A stretch of DNA of 35,801 bases from a virus (taxonomy: Duplodnaviria; Caudoviricetes), in the IMG/VR virus record IMGVR_UViG_3300032303_002091, positions 1-35,801 of that record; one strand, 5' to 3'. The notes under the pieces were generated by a model. It saw only the letters and a list, made by a program, of their open reading frames with translations, searched no databases and was not told the origin of the DNA. The first letter of the stretch is position 1, and each line of letters begins with the position of its first letter. Made by a program: the position numbers and the translations under genes. Below are positions 1 to 35,801 of the stretch, one piece after another.

Positions 1-1042
1 AGTACATTAGTGTTATCACGGTCTTGTCGTTGACCAAGCCCAAGTCCAAGGCAATAATTCTATGTATGTTGGACATTTCATTAAAGTTAAATTGACCAGT
101 TTTGTATATGGGCCAATCAGCAATTTGAAACACAGCACCTTTACCCATGACAGGCTTGCCAGCAATACGTGCTTCTCGTTCATGCGGTAAGTAGTCTCTT
201 TCCAATTGCCGTCTTGTTTCGTTCAATAAGAATGGCTGCCCCCATGGATCATATTCTGGCACATCATCCCATGCCACACGAATGTATTCATATCCTTCAC
301 TGCGATTCCAAAACTTGCTTACAAGTCCGTTGAGTCCTTTGAGTGGCGTAAACGAACAGAGGACTTTACCTTGTGTAGTTGCTGTACGAGTAACGATCTC
401 ACTGAAGAAATCATCTGGAGGTTGTTCGTCAAAGACTGCGAGATTAAGTTTGAAACCCTGTAACTGGCGTACCTCCTGAGTATAATTAGCAAATAGAAGA
501 TAACTATTGTTCCCGCTATTATGCCTAACTTCAACACCAATACAGTTGGCACCATCATTTCGCATAGTATCAACAATGATACAGCGGCGAGGAATAGCAC
601 CAGTTCCCAAGTTTTCAGTAATTTTAACATCTTGTGTTCCTATAAGTTCATTCTGTAGTACAAGGGCCACCTGACTCCAACCTTCGCCTGCTACCATACA
701 AGTTATGGGTTTGTCAAACCGGTAACCTTGCCACCAATCCGGATATTCTCCTGTTAGGTGCATGGCTGTTTCATAGCAGGTACTGACTGTTTTACCGATT
801 CGGTTGGCGGCCAATATCCCTCGGCGCTCACTTGCGCCAGTAGTAAAGAATTGTTTTTGATGCTCAAATGGTCTAAAGTATTTGAGTTGATTGAACTGCA
901 TGTCATCAGCCACAGCAATACTCAATTCCTCAAATTGCTCTCGCAATGCAGGAGGTATTGTGGTTAATGATTCATTGCTGAGATTGTGTGTGTCCAACAC
1001 ATATCTCAACGCACGAGCCATGAGTATTTCTGTACCAACCAT
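1..1042 (-). CDS. terL: Terminase large subunit, N-terminal part (ATPase domain plus start of nuclease domain); runs off the window edge
   Basis: Not in the ORF track; translated by hand from ATG at 1042. MVGTEILMARALRY...FRPFEHQKQFF (adenine-binding Q motif)...GILAANRIGKT (Walker A)...AMHLTGEYPDWWQG (P22 gp2-like)...LAVFDEQPP (Walker B)...IIALDLGLVNDKT (RNase H-like nuclease Asp). The frame stays open to position 1. Confidence 0.95.
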   Translation of the reverse strand, partial: MVGTEILMARALRYVLDTHNLSNESLTTIPPALREQFEELSIAVADDMQFNQLKYFRPFEHQKQFFTTGASERRGILAANRIGKTVSTCYETAMHLTGEYPDWWQGYRFDKPITCMVAGEGWSQVALVLQNELIGTQDVKITENLGTGAIPRRCIIVDTMRNDGANCIGVEVRHNSGNNSYLLFANYTQEVRQLQGFKLNLAVFDEQPPDDFFSEIVTRTATTQGKVLCSFTPLKGLNGLVSKFWNRSEGYEYIRVAWDDVPEYDPWGQPFLLNETRRQLERDYLPHEREARIAGKPVMGKGAVFQIADWPIYKTGQFNFNEMSNIHRIIALDLGLVNDKTVITLMY

Positions 1043-1050
1043 GACTGTGT

Positions 1051-1239
1051 TTAACGTTTTGCTTTGCGTAGTTTAGCAGATAGATACTGTATTAAGATTT
1101 CAACTTCTTCTGGGTCTAAATGAAACTCAGTATATGTATCTGGTTCGCCATCGCGACTCATACGAAAGTATATCTTGTAAGTGTCATTATCCCATTCAAC
1201 ATCTACACTACTGCTGTCATCATGCATAATATTGATCAT
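1051..1239 (-). CDS. Hypothetical protein (62 aa)
   Basis: ATGA overlap with the upstream gene, AAGGAG Shine-Dalgarno (SD), fills the gap before terL. Confidence 0.7.
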   Translation of the reverse strand: MINIMHDDSSSVDVEWDNDTYKIYFRMSRDGEPDTYTEFHLDPEEVEILIQYLSAKLRKAKR

Positions 1240-1535
1240 TGATTGATCTCCTTATGTATTTGATATATTTCGTGCAAGGCTGTGCTTAACAAGGCAATTT
1301 CTTCTGCTGTGCTGGTCCATGTTTCAGGATCATTTAATTTTTCTGGCTTGTCTATCAGCATGGCCTGTAGGCGTTCTGCAATTAGACGCATGACATGTTC
1401 TACCTGGCCAGGAAAGCGAATCTTAAATGCTTCTTTGTGCGCGGCATTGACCTTTTGCAAAATCAATGTGTCACGTGTGCGAGCAGCCTCTTGTGCTTGA
1501 AAGATAGCTCCATCTCTCATTGTGCTGTCTGTCAT
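1236..1535 (-). CDS. Hypothetical helical protein (99 aa)
   Basis: Start moved to MTDSTMRDG at 1535, just after the upstream stop and a GAGG SD, which removes the overlap. Confidence 0.75.
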   Translation of the reverse strand: MTDSTMRDGAIFQAQEAARTRDTLILQKVNAAHKEAFKIRFPGQVEHVMRLIAERLQAMLIDKPEKLNDPETWTSTAEEIALLSTALHEIYQIHKEINQ

Positions 1536-1536
1536 G

Positions 1537-2403
1537 TTAACCGCCTCTAATATCTGTGCCCCATGGATCAACAATGGCTTCTTGGTTAAACTGTCCAAAA
1601 TCTCTGTCAACAAATGTGTCCCAAATATTGCCAGCATTGATACGCATACTTTGCATCATGGTGCGTAGTCTACGACCTGTTGGTGTTAATGTACCGTCTT
1701 CGCGTTGTACCATTTGTTCGCCAGTGGCTGCACCAATCCATTTGATAATCTCTGGGCGTGTGCGACCATACTTGTCAATCTTTGATCCAACTTCTTTCTT
1801 TTCCCATGGGCCATTGATTTCATAACTGATTGTGCCATCATTGTACTTGCGAAACGTGCAGTGACATTTTTTACCTAATGCTCTATATTCTGGATCTGGA
1901 TGTGGCACAAATGGACTAAAGAAATAGTTTTGCATTTCGCTTTCGGGCGGTAAACTTTTATCTCTGGCAGGAATTGGAGGCATGGGTTCTTCTGGCACCA
2001 TGTCCACGCGATCTAAATAGGGGTTTTCATTACCAATAAAAGCTGGATCTATGTATACACCATTGAGTGCATCCATGGCAGTTTGATATTTTAATTTGTT
2101 GGCACGACCTTTTAAGTTTAACACTATGCCAGTTTCATCAAACACAAAGCGTTCAAGTTCTCGGGCTGTGGGAAAGTCTGTCATTAGGCCTTCCAAGTCA
2201 AATTCTGCTGTGCTGGTGGATTTTGGCAGTTGTGCTCGGCCTGCCACTGCTTCTGCAACATCTAAGATGTCTTGTGCTATGTCATCTGGTTGCGGAAGGT
2301 CGTATGGCGATTCTGGTGGCACACAAAGTTCTTCTGGCTCTGCTGTTGCCAATTGTGGTTCTTCCCAAACGCTGGCCTGTTTGGTTACTGTTGTTTTTTT
2401 CAT
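1537..2403 (-). CDS. Hypothetical protein (288 aa) with acidic N-terminus
   Basis: Long ORF with TAAGGA SD; no recognised motif. Confidence 0.85.
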   Translation of the reverse strand: MKKTTVTKQASVWEEPQLATAEPEELCVPPESPYDLPQPDDIAQDILDVAEAVAGRAQLPKSTSTAEFDLEGLMTDFPTARELERFVFDETGIVLNLKGRANKLKYQTAMDALNGVYIDPAFIGNENPYLDRVDMVPEEPMPPIPARDKSLPPESEMQNYFFSPFVPHPDPEYRALGKKCHCTFRKYNDGTISYEINGPWEKKEVGSKIDKYGRTRPEIIKWIGAATGEQMVQREDGTLTPTGRRLRTMMQSMRINAGNIWDTFVDRDFGQFNQEAIVDPWGTDIRGG

Positions 2404-2423
2404 TACTGTTCCTTACTATACTA

Positions 2424-2446: not shown

Positions 2447-2456
2447 TATTTATTTA
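2447..2456 (-). promoter_or_regulatory. Tandem TAAATA late-promoter-like motifs
   Basis: Minus strand CTAAATAAATA overlapping the stop of 2450..3568, upstream of 1537..2403. Confidence 0.45.
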
Positions 2457-3568
2457 GGTATTCTTGCGCGAGTGGCCGCCATTTGCTGTTGTTGTGCGTT
2501 TATTCTGGCTGTATTGGTGCTTACAGGAGGCTTATATGCAGTTTGCGCTTGTTGATACTGCGGAGCCTGTGGTGTAAATATGGCCTGCGGTATTGGACCT
2601 GCTGGAGAGGCTGGTGCGGCTGGTGCGGCTGGAGCCGACGGTGCACCATATACGTCTTCCATTGTGAGGCCATACTGCTCTGGTGTTGCGATCACCATAG
2701 AGATGCCCGAATTATTGGCATTATAATAATCTTGCAAACGTTGTTCTTTAGTCCTATTGGTAAAATCATATCCTTCGGCAGGTCCTCCTCCACCTCCTCC
2801 ATTTGGATCTGGTGTCATGCCTGGTCGTATATACGGGCCGGCATAGATTTCAACGCCATATGGTAAACCTGTTGCAGGATTTCTATCGTCCTCCCATGAT
2901 TTTAGTGGTTCTGGCGTTGGCAATGGAGGAGCGATACCAATTGTATTCATTTGTCTTTGGGCTGCTTCTATCCAATCAGGTTGTGGAGTTGGCGTAGTTG
3001 GCGCCGTTTGTCCTGGATTACCAAATATTTTATTTTGATAATTTTGATAATTTTGTTGTGGAGTTATTTGATTTTGCATAAAGGCAGTTTGTGAATTCAT
3101 AGCCTGTTGTTGCGGTTGATTAAAGTTAGGTGTGTAATTACGGTTTGGCTGACCATATATAACATTAGCGTAGTCGTTATATGTTTGTTGTGGAGTTATT
3201 TGATTTTGCATAAAGCCGGTTTGTGAATTCATAGCCTGTTGTTGTTGTGGATTTAATCCACCAGAAGCTGGCCCTGAACTTTTGCCCATGCCTATTTGCG
3301 GTTGATTCATCTGCGGTTGATTATATCCACCACGGCCACCACCATAACTACGTCCTGGTAAAGGTATAGGTTGATCCATTGGACTGCCATTTAATGGGCC
3401 TCCACCAAATCTATTTGAGCGATAGTCATTACCAAAGCTGTTACCAAACGTTTGATTATTACCATAACCGCCGCCATAGCCTTGATTATAATTGCCTTGA
3501 TAACCACCGCCGGTAGATTTGCCACCGCCCGTGTTGCCACCGCCATAATTTTGTGAAGACGCTCCCAT
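2450..3568 (-). CDS. Gly/Asn/Gln/Pro-rich low-complexity protein (372 aa)
   Basis: TAAGGA SD; prion-like G/N/Q/Y N-terminus; internal duplication. Confidence 0.8.
   Translation of the reverse strand: MGASSQNYGGGNTGGGKSTGGGYQGNYNQGYGGGYGNNQTFGNSFGNDYRSNRFGGGPLNGSPMDQPIPLPGRSYGGGRGGYNQPQMNQPQIGMGKSSGPASGGLNPQQQQAMNSQTGFMQNQITPQQTYNDYANVIYGQPNRNYTPNFNQPQQQAMNSQTAFMQNQITPQQNYQNYQNKIFGNPGQTAPTTPTPQPDWIEAAQRQMNTIGIAPPLPTPEPLKSWEDDRNPATGLPYGVEIYAGPYIRPGMTPDPNGGGGGGPAEGYDFTNRTKEQRLQDYYNANNSGISMVIATPEQYGLTMEDVYGAPSAPAAPAAPASPAGPIPQAIFTPQAPQYQQAQTAYKPPVSTNTARINAQQQQMAATRARIPK
3052..3244. repeat. 61-bp direct repeat, two copies (3052-3112 and 3184-3244)
   Basis: Both encode QQQAMNSQT[AG]FMQNQITPQQ; two mismatches. 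Confidence 0.9.
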
Positions 3569-3582
3569 GATTTATTCCTTAA

Positions 3583-3888
3583 TTAACTGTTTACGCTGGC
3601 GCCCATTGCACCACCGTTTTTACTACGCTTGCCAGTGTTGCCACGAGTTGGACCACGACCCACATTGGTATTAGCATGTAGGCCTTCTACTGCCGGATCA
3701 CGGAATGATTTCATGCCACGACCGCGATTTTCCAATGCTGTAGTAACCATGTCTGCCAAGGCTGATTTTTCACTGCCACTGGCTGACTTGTCCGCCATAA
3801 AAGCACTGCGCTTGTCTGGTGTACCCATGTTGCCATTGCGTGGGCCTTGCGGTTGATTGATCTTGTGACCTGTTGAAGTTGTTTTCAT
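3583..3888 (-). CDS. Hypothetical basic Gly-rich protein (101 aa)
   Basis: TAAGGA SD; tight packing with neighbours. Confidence 0.8.
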   Translation of the reverse strand: MKTTSTGHKINQPQGPRNGNMGTPDKRSAFMADKSASGSEKSALADMVTTALENRGRGMKSFRDPAVEGLHANTNVGRGPTRGNTGKRSKNGGAMGASVNS

Positions 3889-3899
3889 AATCTATTTCC

Positions 3900-4274
3900 T
3901 TAAATTGTTGCGTTCAAGTTTAATACAGGAGTGATATACACTGGACTTGAACTGGCTGCCACACAAGCAACATAAATTGTTTGTGGTGGCAAACTGGGAC
4001 CATCACCTACTTGCACAATAACTTCACCATATGCTGGAATACAGCAACTACCGGCATTGGCACCATCACCTGTGGGAATAACAGCCGTTTGGCTTGTTGT
4101 ACCTGTACTAAAATAAATGTTTTGGTCAGCACTGCCATTGGTAATTTTTAAGAACAGGGGACCTGGTTGTCCATTAAATCCAAAGCCTGCTTCACCAGGG
4201 GTGATATTAATTTGACTGCTGGAACTTGTGGCAGTAACTTTGTGCGTTAGACCAGTAACTTGATATGCGTTCAT
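3900..4274 (-). CDS. Hypothetical beta-rich protein (124 aa), possible capsid decoration or small virion protein
   Basis: TAAGGA SD; beta-strand pattern and a YITP C-terminal motif typical of small phage virion proteins. Function is inferred. Confidence 0.6.
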   Translation of the reverse strand: MNAYQVTGLTHKVTATSSSSQINITPGEAGFGFNGQPGPLFLKITNGSADQNIYFSTGTTSQTAVIPTGDGANAGSCCIPAYGEVIVQVGDGPSLPPQTIYVACVAASSSPVYITPVLNLNATI

Positions 4275-4286
4275 TTATTTTATTCC

Positions 4287-4766
4287 TTAATATTGGCTCT
4301 TAGGACCAAAGTTCATAGGACCGCTACCTTGACCCAATTGTTTCTTGACTGGGTTAGTGCCTTTGCTCATTGTGCCATCGCCCATTGAGTAACCACTTAC
4401 ATTGATACGATCTGGATTGCCATTATAGTTTTGACCTGCACTGGGCATGAATGATCTTGTGCCACTGGGATTACGCACTTGAGGATTGGCGCTGCCTGGA
4501 AACATGTCGCGACCTGGTTGGTGCGCTGGCACACTGGCCGTTGGAGCAGGACGGTAAGCATCTTTAGTAGCACTTGGGCCACCACTTGTGCGATGATCTT
4601 GATTGCCTACACGAGGACCAGTGCCTTCATTGAATAATTTGTTGGGGTTTTGCACACCACTATATTTGTTGCCAGAGAATTTGTTAGCACCGCGGTTTAC
4701 ACCGTCACCGGCCATGCCGTCAAAGTCTAAGTTGCGGTCGTTTTGAGTTTTGCTATTAGATTTCAT
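4287..4766 (-). CDS. Hypothetical Gly/Asn/Pro-rich disordered protein (159 aa)
   Basis: ATGA overlap with the upstream gene; AGGAAAG SD. Confidence 0.8.
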   Translation of the reverse strand: MKSNSKTQNDRNLDFDGMAGDGVNRGANKFSGNKYSGVQNPNKLFNEGTGPRVGNQDHRTSGGPSATKDAYRPAPTASVPAHQPGRDMFPGSANPQVRNPSGTRSFMPSAGQNYNGNPDRINVSGYSMGDGTMSKGTNPVKKQLGQGSGPMNFGPKSQY

Positions 4767-4925: not shown

Positions 4926-5291
4926 TTATTTATCCTCGGCAGCAAGGCCAGTTAGTTTTGCCAGTGCGGCTGCAAATGCGGCTTTCTTGGCTTCCACAGC
5001 GTCTGCGCTGTCAGTTACTTCTATCTTTGCCAAACTATTCATTACTTTGTTTAGGATCAAATTATGATACTTTAGCATCAGCTGTGTGTCTCTATTGCTA
5101 CGTGCTTCCATAAAGTCTTCTACCAATAATTCTTCATAATTGCGGCCATTGTTTTTGGCTGCTACTTGCTGTAGCAAGTTTTCAATTGTAACTGCGTTCT
5201 TACTGCCTTTGGGGCGGCCAGCACCAGGCTGAACACCGCCAAACTTGCGTTTGACGGGTGCGGGTTCTTTGATTTCGTTTGTGTCTTTCAT
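4926..5291 (-). CDS. Probable terminase small subunit / DNA-binding protein (121 aa)
   Basis: KFGGVQPGAGRPKGSKN motif, typical of DUF5681-like small terminase N-termini, followed by helices. Confidence 0.6.
   Translation of the reverse strand: MKDTNEIKEPAPVKRKFGGVQPGAGRPKGSKNAVTIENLLQQVAAKNNGRNYEELLVEDFMEARSNRDTQLMLKYHNLILNKVMNSLAKIEVTDSADAVEAKKAAFAAALAKLTGLAAEDK
4927..4932 (-). promoter_or_regulatory. TAAATA late-promoter-like motif (leaderless geometry)
   Basis: GATAAATA-ATATT-ATG. Confidence 0.55.
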
Positions 5292-5296: not shown

Positions 5297-5314
5297 TATT
5301 TATGCCGATAAATA
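5297..5314. promoter_or_regulatory. Back-to-back divergent TAAATA motifs
   Basis: Minus-strand CATAAATA (core 5297-5302) lies 5 nt before the ATG at 5291. Plus-strand GATAAATA (core 5309-5314) precedes an AAAGGA SD and the ATG at 5337. Confidence 0.65.
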
Positions 5315-5336: not shown

Positions 5337-5846
5337 ATGTTAAATTACACATGGAACAGAGCCTCGGGGCAGGACATTCAAAACATAGTCAACTTGGCAG
5401 AACAGCATTTTAGTGCGGACATAGATAAAATATTTCAACCCAATCCCATTACCTACAGCAGACATATCACACATGCTGTGGTCAATCAATATTACAATCC
5501 CAACAAAGAATTATTATTAGTAACTTATGCGGATGATAAACTCTTGGCCTATACTTGGGCACAGGCAGATCATCGTTGCAATTGGAGTGATGACGCCATG
5601 GTCAATGTCAACATGGCCAGTGTAGACATGCAACTAAATGCTCGTCAACGTGTTATGTTGGTCAAAGACATGATGAAGTTATGGGAATATTTTGCTGAGA
5701 TGGCTGGCAATGACATTGTGTGCAGTACCACCGTGCGTTATGAGCAAGATGGATTTCTCAAACTACATGCTCGCATGGGTTATGACATACGAGGATCAGT
5801 TGCTTATAAAAAGTTGGCCACGACAAAAGCTACTCCTGCCAATTAG
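5337..5846 (+). CDS. GNAT-like acetyltransferase (169 aa)
   Basis: N-terminal RASGQDIQNIVNL, central LLLV...KLLAYTWA strands, C-terminal FLKLHARMGY (GNAT motif B-like). This is the only convincing plus-strand gene. Confidence 0.65.
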   Translation: MLNYTWNRASGQDIQNIVNLAEQHFSADIDKIFQPNPITYSRHITHAVVNQYYNPNKELLLVTYADDKLLAYTWAQADHRCNWSDDAMVNVNMASVDMQLNARQRVMLVKDMMKLWEYFAEMAGNDIVCSTTVRYEQDGFLKLHARMGYDIRGSVAYKKLATTKATPAN

Positions 5847-5911: not shown

Positions 5912-6343
5912 CTATTCCAATGTACTACGTATCATCCAAATAGACTTTTCTATGTCTAATGCTTGATCTTGACCGTAGTTACTGATTTCTTCTAATCCTT
6001 CATCACTGGCCACAACAATAAGTTCTTTGTAGTCTGCCAGTAGTGTTTCCAAATCCATCATTACCAAATCTAACAATTCATCTGCTGAGCCTTCAATGGC
6101 ATCATTGGGTATGGTGCTGGTGCTGACCACTTCAAATATATCACAGGGCATGTATTCCTGCATGGTGCGTAGGATCTCACCTATCTTGTCAATTTGTTCC
6201 TGGCGTCTTTCATAAACACCTTGTAGCAGTTTGTGATCACTACGAAAATTACGACCAGTAATGTTTACATGTGCCGCATGACTGCGAAAGTAAGTGACAA
6301 AGTTGTTTTTGAAGATCTGTGTTAGTTGTTCTGCTGTGGTCAT
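5912..6343 (-). CDS. dps: Dps family ferritin-like protein (143 aa)
   Basis: HAAHVNITGRNFRSDHKLLQGVY...IDKIGEILR matches the Dps HWNxxGxxFxxxHxxxExxY...DxxAER ferroxidase signature; C-terminal EKSIWMIRS. Confidence 0.9.
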   Translation of the reverse strand: MTTAEQLTQIFKNNFVTYFRSHAAHVNITGRNFRSDHKLLQGVYERRQEQIDKIGEILRTMQEYMPCDIFEVVSTSTIPNDAIEGSADELLDLVMMDLETLLADYKELIVVASDEGLEEISNYGQDQALDIEKSIWMIRSTLE

Positions 6344-7377
6344 TGTTGTTGTCCTAATATTCTTTTGGCGGCTTGTACACGCACAGCCATATTTAATCTA
6401 TCTTTGTCTAATATTGCACGTTCTTCAGCAGTAACATTACCATATGGCATATTTCTAATGGCTGTTCTTTGATTCATTGCACCTGCGGCTGCTTGGCTTG
6501 GTGCTTCACCACGCAGTTGTTGAGCATATGGATTATATTGTAAGCCCTGTGCATTGGGATTGGCTTCAATTTGCTTTTTGTTTTCAGCAAATTGATTTAC
6601 CATGTCATAGGCCAACATGGCATTGCCCACAGGACCTATTACTCTTGCCGCGCCACGCAGTGCTGGTCCAGCAACTTTCATTGCTTGCTCGCCATACGTG
6701 GGCACTGTTTTCAAATATTCAGCCGCTGCCTGTGCAAATTGTGGATTGGCTGCCATGGCTGCTTCAGCCGCCGGAGTTTTTAACAATGATCTAACAGCAT
6801 TGTTGCCAGGCCCAGCTGGTACACCCGCATTGGTAGGTGGTCCATACGTGCTGGATATTGTTTTACGAAAGCCTGTAGGATCATTTTGATATAATGCTCT
6901 TTGCATGGCATTGTAAGCATCTTTTGTTGCTTGGCCTTTGCCTAATTCTTGTCCAGCACCGGTAAGTCCTTGTTTGACCGCTTGATATTTGTCATATGCG
7001 CTTAATGCTTGTTGGCCTGCGGCAATGGGAGGTATACCCACAGTGGCCAAACCCAATGCATCTACAGCAGGAGCCAGCATGGGTCTTGCTTTGTATACAT
7101 CAACTGTGTTTTTCAAACCTTGTCCTACAGATTCTGCATAAGGACCCACAGCGGCTTTAGCAGCCTGACCCAATTCTGCTATGCCTGTTGGCGCACCATA
7201 ACCATATGCTGTGACAGGTATGCTGGCCGCTTCTGCTACTGCACCCACTGTGCTGGAGGCGGCCGGTGCGGCCGGTGCAGCCGGAGCCATACTGGCTGCC
7301 GCTTCGTCAATGTCAGCCTGAGTAGGTTCTTTTTCAAACTCTACCCGTTGTCCATTGACTTCATATATGAATGCCAT
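6340..7377 (-). CDS. Putative internal virion / DNA ejection protein (345 aa)
   Basis: Ala-rich helical protein downstream of the transglycosylase-bearing protein; N-terminal YEVNGQRVEFEKEPT module. Confidence 0.6.
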   Translation of the reverse strand: MAFIYEVNGQRVEFEKEPTQADIDEAAASMAPAAPAAPAASSTVGAVAEAASIPVTAYGYGAPTGIAELGQAAKAAVGPYAESVGQGLKNTVDVYKARPMLAPAVDALGLATVGIPPIAAGQQALSAYDKYQAVKQGLTGAGQELGKGQATKDAYNAMQRALYQNDPTGFRKTISSTYGPPTNAGVPAGPGNNAVRSLLKTPAAEAAMAANPQFAQAAAEYLKTVPTYGEQAMKVAGPALRGAARVIGPVGNAMLAYDMVNQFAENKKQIEANPNAQGLQYNPYAQQLRGEAPSQAAAGAMNQRTAIRNMPYGNVTAEERAILDKDRLNMAVRVQAAKRILGQQQ

Positions 7378-9824: not shown

Positions 9825-9833
9825 AGTAGATCC

Positions 9834-10601
9834 TTAACCAAACAAATTCTTAGTGCTTAATTCGTACTTGGTTGAATTTGTAGTACCGCCTTGCGTGCCG
9901 GCAAAGTTAGCATTATAACTTTGAGCAGGTGTGCCATACAATATGCTGGCATATTGATTGTACAATTGTTGCGGTGTCATTGCGGCTGTGATCTGTTGTC
10001 CAGCGGCACCCAATGCTTGTCCAATACCGCCCTGTCCCAACTGTGCTAAACTATTGGCAGCAGCCATACGCTGTGCCGCAGTGTCTTTTTGTACTTGTGC
10101 GGCAATGCCGGCCATTTGCGCTTGATTCTGGCCGGCCAATTGGCGATCCGCCAGGGCCTGACGAGCCGATCCTAAATTACCGGTACCACCGAATTGTGCA
10201 TTACGATTGGCCACGTTTTGTTGATATTGCATTTGCGCTGGCGTCATGGCCGCACGTATTTGATTGGCTTCATAATTGGGATCAAACAAACTTTGTAATC
10301 CACTAATACCACTACGCAAGGCCGACTCACCGGTACCGCCCAGGGTTTCTTGTGCTTGTTGCGCCTGGGTGCCTAAGTTTTGCGCCGCGCCTAATACGCC
10401 TGCGGCATTGTTGTTGTACATGTCCACAGCACCTCTAATGGCTTCTTGGTAAGCAGGTATGATACCCATGCCATTACCAACCCTTTGACCAGTGATAGGA
10501 TCAAAGCCAGTTAAAAAGCCTGTTTGTGCATTTATGGCAGCATCTTGCGCTTTACTTAGTGTTGGGATATACGTTGATGATCCACTGCTTTTTCCACCCA
10601 T
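9834..10601 (-). CDS. Putative DNA ejection / pilot protein (255 aa)
   Basis: MGGKSSGSS start, Gln/Ala/Gly-rich, GNLGSARQA motif typical of podovirus DNA-transfer proteins. Confidence 0.65.
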   Translation of the reverse strand: MGGKSSGSSTYIPTLSKAQDAAINAQTGFLTGFDPITGQRVGNGMGIIPAYQEAIRGAVDMYNNNAAGVLGAAQNLGTQAQQAQETLGGTGESALRSGISGLQSLFDPNYEANQIRAAMTPAQMQYQQNVANRNAQFGGTGNLGSARQALADRQLAGQNQAQMAGIAAQVQKDTAAQRMAAANSLAQLGQGGIGQALGAAGQQITAAMTPQQLYNQYASILYGTPAQSYNANFAGTQGGTTNSTKYELSTKNLFG

Positions 10602-10627
10602 AGTATTATTTCCTTAAATGTTATGTA

Positions 10628-10633
10628 TATTTA
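10628..10633 (-). promoter_or_regulatory. TAAATA late-promoter-like motif
   Basis: CTAAATATACATAACATTTAAGGAAATAATACTATG upstream of 9834..10601. Confidence 0.6.
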
Positions 10634-13996: not shown

Positions 13997-14016
13997 AATT
14001 GTTCTCCGTTATAGTA

Positions 14017-14022
14017 TACTTA
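14017..14022 (-). promoter_or_regulatory. TAAGTA variant late-promoter-like motif
   Basis: GATAAGTATACTATAACGGAGAACAATTATG upstream of 10631..13996. Confidence 0.5.
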
Positions 14023-14026
14023 TCTG

Positions 14027-21230: not shown

Positions 21231-21270
21231 TAAAAAAGCCCAGAGAAAAATTGGAATAAAACTCTGGGCT
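21231..21270 (-). terminator. Rho-independent terminator
   Basis: AGCCCAGAG-16 nt loop-CTCTGGGCT followed by TTTTT on the minus strand. Confidence 0.8.
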
Positions 21271-21351
21271 AAGTTAGCAAAGAAAAGCAAGTGATTAGTC
21301 TGCCCTTAAAGGAATCCCAAATGGCTGTAAAGGATTGAAAACTCTGCTAAC
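21231..21351 (-). ncRNA. Candidate late-expressed structured small RNA (~120 nt)
   Basis: TAAATA at 21356-21361; 10-bp closing stem GTTAGCAGAG / CTTTGCTAAC with a G-U pair that works only on this strand; terminator at the 3' end; no evident ORF. Confidence 0.55.
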
Positions 21352-21354
21352 GAT

Positions 21355-21729
21355 TTATTTATCGTTCTCAACAACTTTTCTACGCGGAGGCTGAGCACGT
21401 GGATTTCGCCAAATGGCCAGATAGTCTTTATCCATCAAGTATTCAATCACAGCAGATTCTTCCTCCACATGATCCAATCTAAATATAGTACACCATTGAC
21501 GATTGTACTTGTAAACCACTGCTTCATCCAAAAATGGTATGTCTATGGGCTTGTCACTTAGCACAGCACAGTTGTAGTTGTCAGGTTCCAGGCCGCGCCA
21601 TTCAGTAAAATCCAAATAGGGTCTTTGCCAACCAATGTGATTGGCTATGGCTATGCGTGGATCGTGTAAGAGTCTTTGTGTTAATCCCGGACGTGGTGTC
21701 CAGTGATGATATTTGACATGATTGGCCAT
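21355..21729 (-). CDS. Hypothetical protein (124 aa)
   Basis: TAATG coupling with the upstream gene. Confidence 0.8.
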   Translation of the reverse strand: MANHVKYHHWTPRPGLTQRLLHDPRIAIANHIGWQRPYLDFTEWRGLEPDNYNCAVLSDKPIDIPFLDEAVVYKYNRQWCTIFRLDHVEEESAVIEYLMDKDYLAIWRNPRAQPPRRKVVENDK

Positions 21730-22007
21730 TAGACTGCCTTAAACATGTAAAATAACACTGTGCCCACCACACCCACTATGACTGAACTAATGGTGGTAAC
21801 GGCCTGCGTGGTTCGTCGGTTAGAGTCACGCTCCATGAGTAACTTGATCTCGGTAAAGTTTTGTTGCATTGATGTTTTAAGATCAGCAACTTGAGTCTCC
21901 ATATTGGACAAGCGGTTTTCAACACTTTCAATTCTCCTGTGTAATGCGTCATATCTCAATTCGCAGAGACTTACATGTGTGCCTAAATCAGTTTCTTCTT
22001 TACTCAT
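21729..22007 (-). CDS. Coiled-coil protein with C-terminal transmembrane helix; XhlA-like / holin-like (92 aa)
   Basis: HVSLCELRY, heptad coil, then ISSVIVGVVGTVLFYMF; located after the fibre genes. Confidence 0.55.
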   Translation of the reverse strand: MSKEETDLGTHVSLCELRYDALHRRIESVENRLSNMETQVADLKTSMQQNFTEIKLLMERDSNRRTTQAVTTISSVIVGVVGTVLFYMFKAV

Positions 22008-22016
22008 AATCATTCC

Positions 22017-24731: not shown

Positions 24732-24748
24732 AATTCATTATCCTTATG

Positions 24749-28952: not shown

Positions 28953-29537
28953 TTAGTGTCCCTTGAAGAATCGTTGTTGTCCTACTTTAGTAGGATATGG
29001 TACATCAACAGGTATTGGCAACCTGCCATGCGGGTAGCAGACAAACTGTGGATATTCCTGTTGCACAACACGATAGAATTGTGCTTTTAATGTACGGTCA
29101 TGTTTGATAGCGTGCCATGGCATGCCACCAAAATATTCATCACTGATTTTAATAGCAACTACATTGGGCAAGTCCATCCATTTGTAACCAATAGTGCCAT
29201 CAGGCATATATGGACCCAGTGGATCCGGCACGCCTGCTTCAGCGGCTGCTCTATAGGCTTTGACACCCGCTATCACTGCTTCAATATTGTGCTGTTCTCG
29301 TTTAATGTAAAACTTGCCATCTTCGCGTCCAGTGGTAACGGTAATATTACCGCTTTTGTTGTAGTCACTACGCTGCCAATCGCCTTTCATGGCATTGTAT
29401 AACCGGTCGTTTTGCAATAATTTGTCGGCTACACCATTGTGGTTGGTAATGGTACCACCATGATCTTGACGCCAGTAGTTGTGATTTTTCTCTGGGTCCG
29501 TGTTGTCTAAATATTCGGGTTGATTTATATTGTTCAT
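28953..29537 (-). CDS. Conserved hypothetical head-module protein (194 aa)
   Basis: Lies between capsid and adaptor; ATG 5 nt after CTAAATA. Confidence 0.8.
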   Translation of the reverse strand: MNNINQPEYLDNTDPEKNHNYWRQDHGGTITNHNGVADKLLQNDRLYNAMKGDWQRSDYNKSGNITVTTGREDGKFYIKREQHNIEAVIAGVKAYRAAAEAGVPDPLGPYMPDGTIGYKWMDLPNVVAIKISDEYFGGMPWHAIKHDRTLKAQFYRVVQQEYPQFVCYPHGRLPIPVDVPYPTKVGQQRFFKGH

Positions 29538-29542: not shown

Positions 29543-29548
29543 TATTTA
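29543..29548 (-). promoter_or_regulatory. TAAATA late-promoter-like motif (leaderless geometry)
   Basis: CTAAATA-TACAT-ATG, directly after the capsid hairpin; no SD. Confidence 0.7.
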
Positions 29549-29602: not shown

Positions 29603-30832
29603 TTAGGAAACGCTACCTGGACCTGCGTTTACACGACGTACCAAGTTGGCATTACGTGGGCTTGTAACAATTGTGCTACCAGTTGTGATGTTGTTTAACA
29701 TACCAACACCTGCTGGGTTACGAACAATTAGTGTACCTTCCATTAAGAACTGATCTAATGAAGCGTCAGCTGAACTGAATACTTCATTGTTAGGACCTAA
29801 GTCACGTAAACTTCCCCATTGCAAGACGTCCTCGTTCAAGAAGTAAATGCTGTTGCTTGTACCAGACTGGTCCATAATCCATGAATCATAAACTTCGTAT
29901 GTGTAGTTGAAGTCGCCTTCGTAAGTTTGAATTGTGTCACCACGCTCAACATTACGACGGTTTACGCTGGTGTTTGAACTAACAATGTTGTCACTGATAG
30001 TTGTGCGTAAACTTGTTGGAACAACCATAGTACGAATCTTAGCGTTGTAACGTTGTTCAGCAGTAGTTACCAATTGCTTGTATAATACTGGGCTGAATAC
30101 TTGATTGCTAAAACCAGAACCGTTTGGTGTGTAGTAGTAGTTACCTGAAGCAACAACATACAATGCGTTAGTACCGCTTGGGCTACCTGTCAATTGACTC
30201 AATGTTGTTGAACTTGTGTCACTGCTGGGTGCGTTGTAGTTTGTTGTCAAACCTGCTTCTGTACCACTTACTGTGTTGAAACTCAGTGTACCTGCGTATG
30301 AAGCCAATGAACCCATACGACGACCACTTGTGTTTTGGCTACCAGCAGTAGTTTGGCTGTTACCAGTAGCAGTACCACTTTGACCTGAATACTGTGTACC
30401 GATTTGGTCATTACGAACTAACTGTTGTTCCACGTCAAACATCATTTCAATCAATTGCTTGACTTCTTGATATGCTTGTGGATCACCACCAGATTGCATA
30501 ACAGCACGAGCAGTACCAGTGGCACCAATCGTAGTTTGGAAAATCTGTGTGAAGTTGTTCAAGTTGTAACGCTGATTACTTTCTGCGTAGGTTGGGCTAA
30601 CTGCGGCACCTTCTTGTACAGCATTAACTGCTGGCAAGCGATAAATGTCATCAGTCCACAAAGGTTGTGTGCTGTTAACTTTACGCTTTTTGCTCATACA
30701 CATGTTTAGAACAGGTGTATCATCTTTAACTCTGTTAGAGACATCTAAATCTAAATCTTTGACAACGATATCAGTTGCGAACGGGCCTGTACCATTGCCA
30801 AGATTTGTAGTATTAATTGCATATGTAGGCAT
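29603..30832 (-). CDS. Major capsid protein (SU10 MCP / DUF5309-like, 409 aa)
   Basis: DTPVL...W.DD...AVQEG...NFTQIF...GTARAV...AYQEVKQLIE..DVEQ...RRMGSL and GTLIVRNP motifs; strong AAGGAGG SD; follows the scaffold gene. Confidence 0.9.
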   Translation of the reverse strand: MPTYAINTTNLGNGTGPFATDIVVKDLDLDVSNRVKDDTPVLNMCMSKKRKVNSTQPLWTDDIYRLPAVNAVQEGAAVSPTYAESNQRYNLNNFTQIFQTTIGATGTARAVMQSGGDPQAYQEVKQLIEMMFDVEQQLVRNDQIGTQYSGQSGTATGNSQTTAGSQNTSGRRMGSLASYAGTLSFNTVSGTEAGLTTNYNAPSSDTSSTTLSQLTGSPSGTNALYVVASGNYYYTPNGSGFSNQVFSPVLYKQLVTTAEQRYNAKIRTMVVPTSLRTTISDNIVSSNTSVNRRNVERGDTIQTYEGDFNYTYEVYDSWIMDQSGTSNSIYFLNEDVLQWGSLRDLGPNNEVFSSADASLDQFLMEGTLIVRNPAGVGMLNNITTGSTIVTSPRNANLVRRVNAGPGSVS

Positions 30833-30850: not shown

Positions 30851-31981
30851 TTATCTACCACCTCTACCCTGTCGCATTCGTTGCAACTGGGCCATTAAGA
30901 GGTTGTCGCCAGCGGTCTTATCGCCGGCTTTGGCTTGTTCACGAAGTTTTTCAATATTGCTATCTGCAGACCTTGAAGTATTGCTTGAGCCTTTGCGACC
31001 AGTCAACTGTGCCATACTGGCACCTGCTGACTTGGTAGTGGGTTTATCTCTATATCGTAAACCATCACGTACTAAACTTAATAAGCTTTCGTCACTGGCA
31101 AGTAAATCAATATTGGCTACACCTGGAATCAATTGCTGACTGGCTTGTGGCCAAATCTTAGCAATCTTATCACGTACTTCATTGTAGACATATTCATTTT
31201 TTAACTCTTTGTCCTGAAAGTTCTTACGAGTATGAGTTAATATCTCATTTACCTGATGGGCACGAACTTGTTTGAACTGATCTACTGCTGGTTGTAACTG
31301 GCCTATGACCTGTTGCTGTTGCCTTATCCATCGTTCATTCTGTTGCATACTCGCTTGAATCCTTGCTCTTTGAGCTGGATCCTGTGTTCTGGCCAATTGT
31401 TGCTGAAACGTTGTTTGATAATTTTGAGTTTTCAAAATCTCATCATACGCACTTTGCAACTTTGGTTGAACAGTAAACTCCATTGCCAAAGTTAAACCTT
31501 CTTGCTTTGCACGAACCTCATTTAAGTATTCATCAAACTGGGCTCTATCAACTTTTAACTGTCTTGCTTCTTCGTGTATTGCTGATCCTTGGCCCAATAT
31601 TGCCGCTGCCTTTTTAGCATCAATTACAACTTCTTTACCATTACGCATAAACTTGAACTTGGCGTTCGGGTTTGTGTCTGCGAATTCTAAGAAATCAATA
31701 AGTTCATCTGCTGTTGAATTACTACTGTCAGTGCTTACAGTTTCCTGGGCGTCTGCTTCATAATCGGCTGTGTCTATATTGTTGCTGTCAGTATCATCAA
31801 TTTCTGGCACAGCATCACTGCTGTTGGGTGCCACAGGGTTTTGACCTGTTGCAGTTTGATTTGGGTCTTGCAGTTGATTACGCATTGCGGTCATTTTGTC
31901 TGCTATGACTTGGTCCAAACTTTGAACTGCTTGTGATTCAGTGGCCGCCGGTTGCTGGTTAGGGCTGATCGTTGTTTCCAT
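30851..31981 (-). CDS. Capsid scaffolding protein (376 aa)
   Basis: Acidic disordered N-terminus, NGKEVVI motif, long Gln-rich coil, basic C-terminus; directly upstream of the capsid gene. Confidence 0.8.
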   Translation of the reverse strand: METTISPNQQPAATESQAVQSLDQVIADKMTAMRNQLQDPNQTATGQNPVAPNSSDAVPEIDDTDSNNIDTADYEADAQETVSTDSSNSTADELIDFLEFADTNPNAKFKFMRNGKEVVIDAKKAAAILGQGSAIHEEARQLKVDRAQFDEYLNEVRAKQEGLTLAMEFTVQPKLQSAYDEILKTQNYQTTFQQQLARTQDPAQRARIQASMQQNERWIRQQQQVIGQLQPAVDQFKQVRAHQVNEILTHTRKNFQDKELKNEYVYNEVRDKIAKIWPQASQQLIPGVANIDLLASDESLLSLVRDGLRYRDKPTTKSAGASMAQLTGRKGSSNTSRSADSNIEKLREQAKAGDKTAGDNLLMAQLQRMRQGRGGR

Positions 31982-32354: not shown

Positions 32355-34637
32355 TTAACTGTATACCTTGGGATCACCGGCTGCCATGCTCATGAAGTCC
32401 AATTGACTTTCAGCATCAGTGCCGGCCACTTCCATTTCTATTTGTCGGGCTTTGACATCGTTCAAGTTGGCCACGCTTAGTTTCTGTTTGTCTTCTGGGT
32501 TTGGTTCACGAGTGGCTCGTTGTTCTTCTGCCTGTGCTAACATGGCTTTGACTTCGTCATCACTTGGCAAGTATGTGTCGCTGTCTTTGACACCCAATAC
32601 ATATAGTGTGTCAGCAAATGGCTTTTTGATCTTTTTGTAAATCTCCGGAGTTAGCGTACCTGCTTCTACCATGCTTTGTGTAGCTGAATATAATTCAGCC
32701 TGACACTTTTGAATAATTTGCAAGCGACCTAATGCGTTTTCTTCACTCATCATGCCCAAAGACAATTCCAAATGTATTTGATGACGATCACAGAAGTTCA
32801 TGTCATCCCAAGCCAAATAATCTAAGAACACGGGTTGCTTGTCCGGATGGCTTGTGGCTGCTAACTTTTTAACGCCATAGTCATCACCATACTGTATCAG
32901 TGTGCGCCATACCAACCATAGTGCTTCACGTAGGCCTTCTGCACAGTTACGCACTGTATTGTCTTGTATAATTTGATTGGGTGTTAGGGCCATTTGCAGT
33001 TTGATGCCGCTGTTACCTGGTGCCATGACTTCTGGGTTAAACACATCCTGCGGAGTTGTCATGCCCACCATGGCCATGGTGTCTTGTTGTATGCGATCCA
33101 TGGCCACTTCTAAGAACTGCAAATTACCACTGGGAGGAGGAATTTGATAAATGTCTTTGGCTGGATCAAACTTGCTGTCCAAAATAAAGATAGCACTTTC
33201 GCCATCCTGCAACATTTCAAAGTCAAGTCTATCTGGCTTGACACCAATACGTGGAGTTGCTGTTAACAAGCCCAATTGTATTTCTGCACGAGCCGCTGAT
33301 GTGTTGTATTCCTGCATGGGAATAACTGACTCAGCAATGCTCATACCATAGAAGTTGCCAGGCAAGGGTTTTGGACACATGTTGGCCACTGGAATAAATT
33401 CAACTTCACGGGCACTGATAATATAACTGCCTGAATAGATCAATTCAACCAATTCTAATTCGCCATCACCATCTATGTCATAACGATTCCACACTGTGAC
33501 AATACTGATAATGCGACTGTCTGGATCTGCACTTGCGGCACTGCTGACAGGAATACCCATGACTGGTACTGAGTCACGTGCGTGTATGGCCAAGTTGTTC
33601 AACACTGAACCTGCTTGGTATGCTCCGTTCATGTTGTATTCGGCATGCACACGAAACTTTTCCAAATCAATATCTGGATATAGATCCATTGCTTCCTGTA
33701 TAGTCATAGGATCATAAAAACCACAGAATGGCTGATCTTTCATTTCTGGCACTGTGGGATCACAGATCCAGTAGTGCTGTGCAATGGGATGAAACTTGAC
33801 GTTGATATTGTAGCCAGTTAGTTTATACTTGGCCTTGTAAATTGTATTGCGTTTGATTGCACTACGCAGTATCTCATCTTGTCCGTCCACTTGATCCTGT
33901 GCCATGGCTGTTTGCTCTGCCATCATGTTCAAAGGATCTTGTTCTTCTGGCAATTGTTTTAATTGATCTATTTGCATGTTAATTTGGTCTTGACCAAATT
34001 GCTGTTGTTGATCACCTGCCAGCTGTTGTATCTCAGCAAGAACTTTATCCATTTCAACGTTGATTTGTCTGCGGCTTTGACGCATGGCTGTGAGTCCGCT
34101 TTCTGCTGCCTGCTGTTCAAAGGCACGCAATTGATCCATTGTGCCTTCTGTTTCCACATAGCGCACAATTTGTTCACGCACGGGTTTAATCATCATCATG
34201 CCATTTTTATGCATACAAGCATCCATGATCCAACGCTCTAATATAAAATGTGGATCATTCATTTGATTAACAACTTTGCTGACCATGTTAGTGGCCTGAC
34301 GAGCCGCTTCGTTGTCATCTTCTCCGTCTGCTACAAATTCAAAGTTTATTTCGCCATTGCCAATAAGGCCTTTGGCAATAACTGCTGTGGCATAGTCCAC
34401 TACCGGTTTAACTGTGGGATGAATGTAATCCATGCCATTAACAGGTGCTGTTGATTCACTAACAGCCAAGCATAGATAGTGATAGTCAGCCGCGCGATTT
34501 ACTGCGTTCTTTGTGCCCAAGTAGCGCAGATAACTGGCCATCTTTGTATCCATTTGATTCTTCATACGAACAAAACGATTGTTGATTGTTCTGTTTTGAT
34601 CTATATCTTGAATCGGTATACATTTAATGTTTAACAT
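32355..34637 (-). CDS. Portal protein (P22/SU10-like, 760 aa)
   Basis: EDDNEAARQAT, DACMHKNGMM, YDIDGDGELEL and PKPLPGNFYGMSIAE motifs; lies between terminase and scaffold. Confidence 0.92.
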   Translation of the reverse strand: MLNIKCIPIQDIDQNRTINNRFVRMKNQMDTKMASYLRYLGTKNAVNRAADYHYLCLAVSESTAPVNGMDYIHPTVKPVVDYATAVIAKGLIGNGEINFEFVADGEDDNEAARQATNMVSKVVNQMNDPHFILERWIMDACMHKNGMMMIKPVREQIVRYVETEGTMDQLRAFEQQAAESGLTAMRQSRRQINVEMDKVLAEIQQLAGDQQQQFGQDQINMQIDQLKQLPEEQDPLNMMAEQTAMAQDQVDGQDEILRSAIKRNTIYKAKYKLTGYNINVKFHPIAQHYWICDPTVPEMKDQPFCGFYDPMTIQEAMDLYPDIDLEKFRVHAEYNMNGAYQAGSVLNNLAIHARDSVPVMGIPVSSAASADPDSRIISIVTVWNRYDIDGDGELELVELIYSGSYIISAREVEFIPVANMCPKPLPGNFYGMSIAESVIPMQEYNTSAARAEIQLGLLTATPRIGVKPDRLDFEMLQDGESAIFILDSKFDPAKDIYQIPPPSGNLQFLEVAMDRIQQDTMAMVGMTTPQDVFNPEVMAPGNSGIKLQMALTPNQIIQDNTVRNCAEGLREALWLVWRTLIQYGDDYGVKKLAATSHPDKQPVFLDYLAWDDMNFCDRHQIHLELSLGMMSEENALGRLQIIQKCQAELYSATQSMVEAGTLTPEIYKKIKKPFADTLYVLGVKDSDTYLPSDDEVKAMLAQAEEQRATREPNPEDKQKLSVANLNDVKARQIEMEVAGTDAESQLDFMSMAAGDPKVYS

Positions 34638-34661
34638 CGTAAGATATCCTTAATAATACAT

Positions 34662-34667
34662 TATTTA
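34662..34667 (-). promoter_or_regulatory. TAAATA late-promoter-like motif
   Basis: CTAAATAATGTATTATTAAGGATATCTTACGATG upstream of the portal gene. Confidence 0.65.
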
Positions 34668-34686
34668 GCAGAATTTTTTGTTGGAT

Positions 34687-35226
34687 TCAACTATTGATGT
34701 AATCTTCTAACAACATGGTGGGCAAAGCGGCGTGTTGTTGTATATAGGCCAGTTGATGTGGTTTCAAGGGTGCGCCGTTGGTTAAGAAATTACCCCTAAC
34801 TGATTGATTACCCACTGTTTTGAATTTTGGGTTCTTGGTGTAGTCTGCTATGATTCTGCGGCCATGACCATTGTCCTGTTCATAATAGTTTAAGAATATA
34901 AAATCAACATCAGCAGGAGCACCATGGGCCACAGTGTTGACATTGGCAAGCCATTTGGTATCTACCAACATGTCGCAGGCAAAGCCTTGAGAAATGCCGC
35001 TAATTAACAAATGTTCCAAATTGGCTATGCTGTTGATTTTGCCTGTGTAAACAATGTCAAAATCATGTGTGTTGTCAATGTCATACAAACAGCGTCCTGT
35101 GACATGTGCAGTCAATTGACTCCATTCAATAATGTGTTTCATTCTATCATACCAAGAAACAATCTTTTCTTTAGTTGGTTTGCCCCACGGGCGATGTGTG
35201 CTTACCGGTCCTCTTCTATAATACAT
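34687..35226 (-). CDS. Putative Pol-beta-superfamily nucleotidyltransferase-like protein (179 aa)
   Basis: AHVTGRCLYDIDNTHDFDIVYTG resembles hG[GS]x9-13DhDh; later MLVD supplies a candidate third Asp; AGGAG SD. Confidence 0.5.
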   Translation of the reverse strand: MYYRRGPVSTHRPWGKPTKEKIVSWYDRMKHIIEWSQLTAHVTGRCLYDIDNTHDFDIVYTGKINSIANLEHLLISGISQGFACDMLVDTKWLANVNTVAHGAPADVDFIFLNYYEQDNGHGRRIIADYTKNPKFKTVGNQSVRGNFLTNGAPLKPHQLAYIQQHAALPTMLLEDYINS

Positions 35227-35234
35227 ACGTGCTC

Positions 35235-35801
35235 CTATTCTGCGCTAAAGGTCCGCTTCCAAGCAGGCCTGTTTGTGTCATCTCGCTTGACATATCTATC
35301 TCTCTGCGCCAACATTCTCTGTGCTGGTGTTTTGTTGTCCCATGGTTCAGCCAGACTGTTTAGGCAGCCCAATAATGCATAACGTGCTGAGTCAATTGTG
35401 TCATCTGGATCACTAAAGCGGCCTTTTTCATCTACGAAATAGTTTCTTGCGTCTTGTAAAAATTCAGCACAGTTTTCGTTGATCATTAATGATCCCACTT
35501 CCATCATTTGTCGCATTTGATTTATACCATATGCTTTGTGATTGGTCACACGCCCTTGACTGTCTGGCGGATTCATAATGGGCTTTTCCAACACATTCAA
35601 TTCGTAACTGTCAAACAATTCTCTTATGCTGTTGGCACTCATGGTGTATCTGCCAGGAGTACTTGCATCAGCAGGTAGCACAATAGGACAACCAAACACT
35701 TCAGGACGAAGTAAATGATTGATATACTGAGTGGGCACAGCTTCTTCAATGCCCTGCACAATAATTTGTCTATGTAAGTAAGCAGTCTTTTCATATAGAT
35801 C
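35235..35801 (-). CDS. terL: Terminase large subunit, C-terminal nuclease part
   Basis: Open from the window edge (DLYEKTAYLHRQII...); IVLPADA and DPDDTIDSARYA (terminase C-terminal DD..DA.RY motif). Confidence 0.93.
   Translation of the reverse strand, partial: DLYEKTAYLHRQIIVQGIEEAVPTQYINHLLRPEVFGCPIVLPADASTPGRYTMSANSIRELFDSYELNVLEKPIMNPPDSQGRVTNHKAYGINQMRQMMEVGSLMINENCAEFLQDARNYFVDEKGRFSDPDDTIDSARYALLGCLNSLAEPWDNKTPAQRMLAQRDRYVKRDDTNRPAWKRTFSAE

Follow-up and report, generated by a model that had tools for sequence, protein, structure and literature searches.

A podovirus-type genome that probably makes its own particle and borrows late transcription and lysis from a jumbo phage

How does a small tailed phage switch on its virion genes and leave its host cell when neither a sigma factor nor a free endolysin can be recognised among its genes? 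The question is raised by IMG/VR virus record IMGVR_UViG_3300032303_002091 (Caudoviricetes), which we analysed as one stretch of 35,801 nucleotides (the window; G000). A first-pass annotation had taken it for a helper-dependent satellite that builds a full podovirus particle and relies on a co-infecting large T4-like phage for late transcription, DNA replication and possibly lysis. Judging from comparisons of sequence among relatives, the window is probably a podovirus-type satellite virus that makes its own particle and borrows the late sigma factor and the lysis of a jumbo phage, and it would likely multiply only in cells co-infected by such a phage, as a bacterial virophage.

The window is the entire virus record (35,801 bp, 99% complete according to CheckV) and lacks a terminal repeat. 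Its terL gene is divided over both ends (2-1042 and 35235-35801, both on the minus strand) and joins out of frame; an alignment with 20 relatives that read through this point revealed that two bases are missing within terL, and metagenome contigs of a related strain (run X2) run beyond the record end into the same terL sequence. Because the relatives and the related-strain contigs read through the join, the genome is essentially complete and permuted, and the earlier statement that it is closed with terL wrapping around the ends holds but for these two bases. Searching IMG/VR with the capsid protein yielded 187 loci of the same podovirus family (family A, genome size 32-38.5 kb), and among the 80 listed no contig exceeds 38.5 kb; terminal repeats occur in 5 of 22 long relatives, and relatives were found in a sequencing run labelled freshwater metagenome. 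The possibility that the window is a fragment of a larger genome was ruled out by the sizes of these 80 relatives, the 5/22 terminal repeats and the terL that spans the ends. One relative (G018) has ~2.5 kb repeated at both ends despite its linear classification and is probably complete. Among 185,579 species genomes the capsid gene matched only one 3.2-kb contig of an Actinomycetota metagenome-assembled genome (MAG), and it is missing from 23 relatives of that MAG within its family; the match looks like a stray contig, and the family is therefore not seen as prophage.

Packaging and virion proteins make up ~70% of the window in our own gene list, in line with its description as mostly morphogenesis genes. 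Pfam and PHROGs searches of 38 window open reading frames (ORFs) recovered TerL, an SU10-type portal and capsid, Dps, a tail-fibre domain, an AAA ATPase and a weak holin/haemolysin, and gave no match to a polymerase, primase, helicase, single-stranded DNA-binding protein (SSB), integrase, repressor, sigma factor or endolysin, which agrees with the gene content reported before. A weak 'DnaC-like' match (E 0.008) falls on the AAA P-loop, and no tRNA was found in the window.

The evidence for a borrowed sigma factor starts with the position of the hexamer TAAATA. Its count in the window is not raised (14 on the minus strand, with 10.6-15.8 expected); what stands out is their placement, with 11 of the 21 found 8-65 nt ahead of a same-strand start, versus 33 of 413 for the 14 other hexamers of equal composition (P ~1e-7). 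For most box and core counts we took the window and 20 of the 22 long relatives (21 genomes), in which 191 of 387 TAAATA sites are close to starts and the best of the 14 same-composition hexamers reaches a fraction of 0.146. A -35-like hexamer accompanies only 9 of 186 sites and the matrix carries no information at -35. An artefact of stop codons or AT-richness was ruled out by the permuted-hexamer controls and by the stop codon overlap, which concerns 22 of these 186 sites. The family consensus is RCTAAATA/NATAAATA, with RC as the commonest prefix (101/186), whereas the exact T4 octamer TATAAATA has 0 occurrences in the window. The first-pass annotation had placed TAAATA and TAAGTA, both without an evident -35 box, before the late genes; TAAATA and the missing -35 box stand, and TAAGTA is weak as a main variant, only 2 of its 17 window sites (17519 and 14022) preceding starts. 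A sigma28 or archaeal TATA reading was rejected as well, since there is no downstream GCCGATAA-like column and Shine-Dalgarno motifs are present.

The distance between box and start, with start positions taken from our own simple ORF caller, is bimodal: 44 sites fall in a peak at 11 nt and 40 in another at 27-28 nt. Of the 63 sites at 10-13 nt a single one has a Shine-Dalgarno motif, whereas 71 of the 96 at 20-36 nt do. In the available part of PMC2988020 the 8-bp T4 late box begins at -13, so that TAAATA begins at -11, and the Aeh1 variant has a/gC at -13/-12, which equals the RC prefix commonest in the family. The 11-nt class is therefore as would be expected of leaderless transcripts, and the box spacing fits T4-late geometry. 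A conserved -10 box with a TAAATA core and no -35, the hallmark of a T4-type late promoter, is thus present. As far as the consulted portions of PMC2988020 (T4; gp55, gp33 and gp45) and PMC5259590 (phage CBB) go, the window and its family share with these phages the -10-only box, the TAAATA core, the Aeh1-type RC prefix, the AT-rich downstream stretch and the start spacing; they differ in that the cognate sigma factor is encoded there and none was found in the window, from which TATAAATA is absent too. Canonical promoters are few: a scan of 16900-22200 placed one 12/12 and one 11/12 sigma70 promoter, both in the accessory module, and a strict sigma70 pattern occurs three times in the whole window and is found in 11 of 21 family genomes. 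The main promoter features are:

5297-5314, both strands: back-to-back TAAATA boxes, 11 nt before the ATG of 4926-5291 and 28 nt before 5337-5846.
10628-10633, minus strand: TAAATA box, 32 nt before 9834-10601, kept in 18/19 orthologues.
17157-17162, minus strand: TAAATA box, 26 nt before the gene of a 640-aa tail protein.
18810-18815, minus strand: TAAATA box that heads the g22-g21-g20 operon.
34662-34667, minus strand: TAAATA box, 30 nt before the portal gene.
19882-19910, minus strand: sigma70 promoter (12/12 match) preceding the AAA gene.
20999-21027, minus strand: sigma70 promoter (11/12 match) preceding the DUF4258-like gene.

A clear contrast was offered by a sister lineage of podoviruses. 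Of 50,697 annotated phage records the capsid protein matched just MW202484 (41.8 kb, 60% identical), whose annotation lists Cro, SSB, ERF, RusA and a chitinase, and its lineage comprises 541 loci in IMG/VR, of which 80 were fetched (loci under 6 kb were dropped from the box counts). TAAATA lies near starts at 282 of 534 sites in 75 family loci versus 20 of 562 in 76 sister loci; it precedes the portal gene in 66/66 family loci versus 0/58 sister loci, and the post-capsid gene in 60/76 family orthologues versus 0/74 in the sisters. Conversely, a chitinase-type endolysin was found in 11 of 26 sister genomes versus 0 of 17 family genomes, the phrog_7 endolysin in 10 other sister genomes versus 0/23 (both queries together match 21/26 sister genomes), and RusA in 12/26 versus 0/23. 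These counts indicate that gain of the box accompanies loss of lysis and recombination genes, in what is one lineage comparison and not many independent ones, the terminases of the two groups being distant. The sisters (MW202484 and its 39-45 kb IMG/VR relatives) resemble the window in SU10-type capsid, portal and head/tail gene order, but they have their own endolysin, RusA, ERF/Sak, SSB and initiator genes, a distant TerL and no box; the endolysin and the recombination and replication genes that mark an autonomous SU10-capsid podovirus are not seen as a set in family A.

Could a sigma factor or lysin be hidden elsewhere in the family? The core consists of virion genes, Dps, a gene that we take to be GNAT-like, a probable terminase small subunit and a few small ORFs without assigned function; it includes no conserved early gene, and the five terminal-repeat genomes have none in common either. 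Outside the core, cluster representatives and singletons of 62-700 aa were searched with PHROGs (113 and 93 proteins) and Pfam (113 and 77); the matches in this size range comprised methylases, glycosyltransferases, HNH nucleases, GroES and parts of fibres, and no sigma factor, integrase or repressor was among them. One weak endolysin-PHROG match (E 5e-7) falls on a protein in ejection position in one relative (G007). The gp55 family phrog_234 matched 0/23 family genomes versus 1/1 for a jumbo phage control (G023); Sigma70_r2 matched 0/24 genomes and also missed the true gp55 of that control; a custom gp55 hidden Markov model reached at best E 0.59 on the ORFs and 2.7 on the six frames of family A, and hhalign of the gp55 profile to 16 clusters gave at most 1%. 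No sigma-like fold was seen in structure models of the core protein g4 and of g21, a protein of the accessory region. The g21 model (mean predicted local distance difference test score 69) had no PDB match at E<=0.001 (best Z 5.4, to small beta-barrels), three significant viral matches, all uncharacterised, and no usable match in the Atlas, and a g21 profile search returned 12 unnamed proteins. The search for a hidden sigma fold proposed earlier, by profiles and by models of g4 and g21, thus turned up none. That the late sigma factor and the lysis of a helper would be needed is well supported by these comparisons, and the earlier suggestion of reliance on a helper for late transcription and possibly lysis gains comparative evidence from the sister contrast and from the missing gp55 and endolysin matches.

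Phages that could supply such a sigma factor do exist. Searching with the tail fibre brought up G023, a fragment of 192 kb (~55% complete) which, with 111 of 228 ORFs scanned, encodes a gp55-like sigma factor adjoining gp47/46, Dps, a pair of endolysins, and a capsid and portal of T4 type. TAAATA is near starts at 39 of its 73 sites, with the same two spacings as in family A, and at 114 of 266 sites in 40 of 80 related loci. A gp55-like sigma factor of this kind was found at at least 600 loci, its closest cultured relatives being those of PA5oct/Paride (40%) and 121Q-type phages, and relatives of the gp55-gp47 pair are present in all four runs examined (63-214 contigs; one study, without control). 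In the PA5oct region 12 of 90 TAAATA sites are near starts versus 22 of 497 for controls, and the Cr30 region has little box signal (2/9). In the Rak2-like phage CBB an ATAAATA motif precedes structural genes and a gp55-like sigma factor is encoded, and gp33 and gp45 were not detected according to the part of PMC5259590 available; a Pfam search for gp45 likewise found it in 0 of 5 jumbo fragments, all incomplete. The helper first imagined as a large T4-like phage is therefore better sought among ~350-kb PA5oct/Rak2-like jumbo myophages, which encode gp55 and have the same box, than among T-evens, and the gp33 and gp45 clamp step once included finds no support. The NrdC.10-related AAA gene occurs in 1,299 phage records, T4-like and jumbo, with the best match in PA5oct-type phages (33%); as a route to the helper it gave three loci (34%) and no close link. 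Its relatives among Polynucleobacter-named proteins (52-57% identity) hint weakly at a Polynucleobacter-type host. The AAA gene and a NUMOD-like partner are also paired in small chromosomal islands (L493, L501, L524 and L534) with genes that look recombinase-like by eye; a few such islands carry TAAATA boxes and are possibly further jumbo-phage satellites.

The same design was met in an unrelated lineage. The only IMG/VR relative of g21, which is missing from the 20 family relatives, is a 63% identical copy in G054 (L312; 28,285 bp), a siphovirus with overlapping ends, a tape measure and tail J, and with capsid, portal and terminase unrelated to those of the window. Its family (family B; L413-L492, G084-G088) has genomes of 26-31 kb and 249 loci in IMG/VR, 80 of which were fetched; TAAATA is near starts at 166 of 354 sites in 79 loci versus a fraction of 0.10 for control hexamers, in box counts made without a sister-lineage control. 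PHROGs gave no sigma factor or endolysin in G054 (34/38 ORFs) or in four more genomes (50/67 accessory ORFs). Fibres, holin-like, HNH and g19 genes and slot proteins are common to both families, and no core gene was found in all members of both. Family B would thus be a convergent case of boxes without sigma factor or lysin, and we lean to the view that at least these two lineages, podoviruses of 32-38 kb and siphoviruses of 26-31 kb that are unrelated to each other, form a widespread guild of 'bacterial virophages' on aquatic jumbo myophages, which may have dropped lysis and transcription control independently, rewired their virion operons to a gp55-like sigma factor and pooled accessory and replication modules.

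Replication is handled less uniformly. The accessory region of the window holds:

17196-17489, minus strand: g19, a small protein common to jumbo phages G023/G026 (~30%) and siphovirus family B; its profile has no meaningful PDB or Pfam match.
17665-18363, minus strand: g21, modelled as an alpha/beta protein, in the swappable slot.
18376-18792, minus strand: g22, by position the first gene downstream of the box at 18815.
19056-19820, minus strand: NrdC.10-like AAA ATPase (phrog_1250).
19911-20666, minus strand: possible NUMOD-type homing-endonuclease-like DNA-binding protein, a lead from ESM Atlas neighbours NUMOD1/NUMOD3 (scores 0.85-0.87).
20676-20966, minus strand: small DUF4258-like protein, downstream of the second sigma70 promoter.

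Downstream of a TAAATA box the window has g22-g21 where four relatives have a primase and a VapE-type helicase, the carriers of this pair being scattered on a quick TerL tree among relatives without it, and other members have differing 350-370 aa proteins without assigned function in their accessory region. We read this as a swappable replication slot, which makes g21, by its position alone, a candidate initiator. The claim that replication depends on a helper may hold for the window, in which no replication enzyme was recognised and g21 and g22 have no assigned function, and does not extend to the family as a whole. A 350-366 aa protein (L085:9653-10750 of G016; also in G002, G084 and G085) occupies the replication slot in both families and shows, judged by eye, motifs like those of polymerase A; searches of Pfam, PHROGs and PDB with the 366-aa slot protein gave no match.

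Several observations weigh against a satellite living on jumbo phages. The primase-helicase pair is present in 4 of 20 relatives (G007, G010, G014 and G015) and primase genes in two of the five genomes of family B; for many accessory ORFs there is no family match at all, and 5 of 26 sister genomes also lack a match to both endolysin queries, so that a blank is no proof of absence. The specific jumbo partner could not be pinned down by prefix, DNA identity or co-occurrence. The promoter-logo comparison went against the expectation, for the sampled jumbo clade prefers AA/GG/CA before TAAATA (RC 8/114) and family A prefers RC (101/186); blastn gave no sign of recent DNA exchange with jumbo phages, the best matches (65-78%) lying in fibre repeats, and the fibre domain shared with them is closer and commoner in unrelated small phages. 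The co-occurrence check did not discriminate either, with a dataset overlap of 13/71 with the jumbo phages versus 5/45 for the control in the top-80 lists.

Other explanations have to account for the same data. If host RNA polymerase, with a housekeeping or alternative sigma factor of some host lineage, read TAAATA, the window could be a minimal phage with an autonomous life, replicated by the host and released by a lysis route that is non-enzymatic or unrecognised, and the holin-like gene retained in the window would suit such a life. We consider this unlikely, as the early module of the window uses canonical sigma70 promoters, the sister lineage with a 60% identical capsid has no box, and of 275 TAAATA sites in 30 metagenomic loci around AAA relatives (chromosomal islands, where inspected) only 35 are near starts; the box and its spacing match phages with their own gp55 (the G023 clade; CBB in the accessible text of PMC5259590), and the loss of endolysin and RusA would be left unexplained. 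It also seems quite unlikely that the phage is autonomous and that one of its own genes codes for a late activator or sigma substitute which escaped recognition: core clusters 3, 5, 6, 13, 14, 16 and 17 and most accessory ORFs do have no family match or one of unknown function, and profiles can miss divergent sigma factors, as Sigma70_r2 did with the gp55 of G023, but the five terminal-repeat genomes share no gene in early position. The sole sizeable soluble core protein without assigned function, g4, is also found in the box-less sister and its modelled fold is not that of a sigma factor, g21 is modelled as an alpha/beta sheet protein and is missing from 20 relatives, and family B has the box but no core gene common to all members of both families.

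It is very unlikely, in our view, that the element is a resident plasmid-like carrier with a sigma70 module, for which the helper sigma factor would be a trigger of escape or defence; the lifestyle would differ and promoter use would be the same. The sigma70-driven AAA/NUMOD/DUF4258-like cassette, the plasmid/PICI-type primase-helicase modules of some relatives and the lack of a known helper-attachment protein are in line with it. On the other hand, no integrase, partition or repressor gene was matched in any genome scanned, the strict sigma70 pattern is confined to 11 of 21 family genomes, and the capsid gene was seen on a single 3.2-kb MAG contig in 185,579 species genomes and in 0 of 23 relatives of that MAG.

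Under the preferred reading of a satellite with its own particle, only the small sigma70 module (AAA, NUMOD protein and DUF4258-like gene) would be read on entry of the likely non-integrating genome. The gp55-like late sigma factor of the helper would then load host RNA polymerase onto the boxes and turn on the g22-g21 slot and all virion operons. Replication, the least certain step, would use parts of the host or helper replisome, possibly recruited by g21, and some relatives may bring their primase-helicase. The satellite DNA would be packaged by its own terminase, and exit would follow lysis of the cell by the helper, through the helper endolysin.

Satellites that make their own virion have been described before. 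According to the available part of PMC10690885, MiniFlayer and MulchRoom, satellites of Streptomyces BE-cluster phages presented there as the first satellite viruses of bacteria, have their own capsid and no replication genes; like the window they encode a capsid, a portal and a terminase themselves, and they depend on a large virulent helper, as is proposed for the window, in which no replication enzyme was recognised; MiniFlayer has, as the window does, its own short tail and no integrase. The window encodes its own virion and packaging genes as expected of a satellite virus of this kind. They differ in size (14.8-17.4 kb versus 32-38 kb) and helper (a siphovirus of ~130 kb), no shared late-promoter mechanism is described in that part of the source, and the capsid search of the 50,697 phage records, returning MW202484 alone, found no homology to family A. 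The virophages Sputnik, Mavirus and Guarani carry the late-promoter motif of their helper upstream of their own genes (PMC6723459, in the part seen) and, like the window, combine a self-made virion with helper-type late promoters, some having their own replication enzymes; unlike it they live in eukaryotic hosts and giant-virus factories, whereas tailed phages and a proposed bacterial sigma swap are involved here. With the PLE of Vibrio cholerae, phage-inducible chromosomal islands (PICIs), P4 and capsid-forming PICIs (cf-PICIs), family A shares the proposed helper-tied activation, a primase-helicase in some members and a candidate homing-endonuclease-derived DNA-binding gene (PMC13595925 and PMC10690885, both in part). 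Those elements integrate and take capsids or tails, whereas family A has no integrase match and encodes head, tail and fibres. The window has neither an integrase with chromosomal residence nor missing capsid or tail genes, and it is not a PICI, PLE or P4-like element. The notion that it does the reverse of known satellites is right as to its own particle, but not wholly new, MiniFlayer/MulchRoom (PMC10690885) and the virophages (PMC6723459), as far as the parts consulted go, having preceded it. We found no description of this system in the literature, subscription papers and supplements being outside the scope of the search.

If true, two families (187 and 249 loci) would be parasites of jumbo phages that act via transcription and not by theft of parts, a bacterial parallel of virophages, and many small 'complete' metagenomic phages counted as ordinary would be hyperparasites that can be recognised from their promoters alone. 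A helper late box without sigma factor and lysin would be a sequence-only signature for finding such elements. Whether satellites become commoner with helper genome size is called unclear in the available part of a 2026 review (PMC13359090).

The packaging, virion and remaining genes of the window are arranged as follows:

2-1042, minus strand: terminase large subunit, N-terminal ATPase part (PF03237, phrog_2; matched in 22/22 relatives).
1537-2403, minus strand: g4, core protein, also present in the autonomous sister phage; predicted small helical (Rho-N-like) and beta domain (best Z 4.2, weak).
4926-5291, minus strand: probable terminase small subunit, from position and motif (weak DUF5681); core in 20/21 family genomes.
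5337-5846, plus strand: core gene on the opposite strand (21 genomes including the sister), presumably GNAT-like, a label given by eye; family searches gave no match.
5912-6343, minus strand: Dps/ferritin-like DNA-binding protein (PF00210, phrog_3636); core in 21/21 family genomes.
6340-17136, minus strand: podovirus tail and predicted ejection-protein block (phrog_3287, phrog_33352; 'ejection' from position).
21729-22013, minus strand: holin/haemolysin-like protein with a coiled coil and hydrophobic C-terminus (weak phrog_1193/937/689, E 0.002-0.005).
22017-27730, minus strand: two tail-fibre genes (fibre domain matches).
28953-29537, minus strand: conserved post-capsid gene, with a box (29543-29548) 11 nt before its ATG (leaderless type).
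29603-30832, minus strand: SU10-type major capsid protein (PF17236, phrog_1328).
30851-31981, minus strand: probable scaffold protein, from position; core.
32355-34637, minus strand: SU10-type portal protein (PF23899, phrog_1216).
35235-35801, minus strand: terminase large subunit, C-terminal nuclease part (PF17289).

The Dps proteins of the window and of G023 belong to the same PHROG, and the small ferritin-like gene of the sister lineage is a different one. Over residues 444-621, the 993-aa fibre shares 54% identity with a protein of G023. No endolysin was found adjoining the holin-like gene; a stretch (8955-9317) of the predicted 815-aa ejection protein (7377-9824) looks to the eye like a lytic transglycosylase, but neither Pfam nor PDB gave a meaningful match.

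Some genes are unusual in composition. Gly/Asn/Gln-rich genes at 2450-4766, upstream of terL, probably encode disordered proteins, and two of them are kept in 16-18 family genomes. The 1121-aa protein at 10631-13996, downstream of a TAAGTA box, consists mostly of Pro/Thr/Val tetrapeptide repeats, and the gene at this position ranges from ~150 to 1650 aa among relatives. Three relatives carry a GroES-like gene on the opposite strand (L114:8575-8826 of G021; also G012 and G020), and the jumbo phage G023 encodes GroEL.

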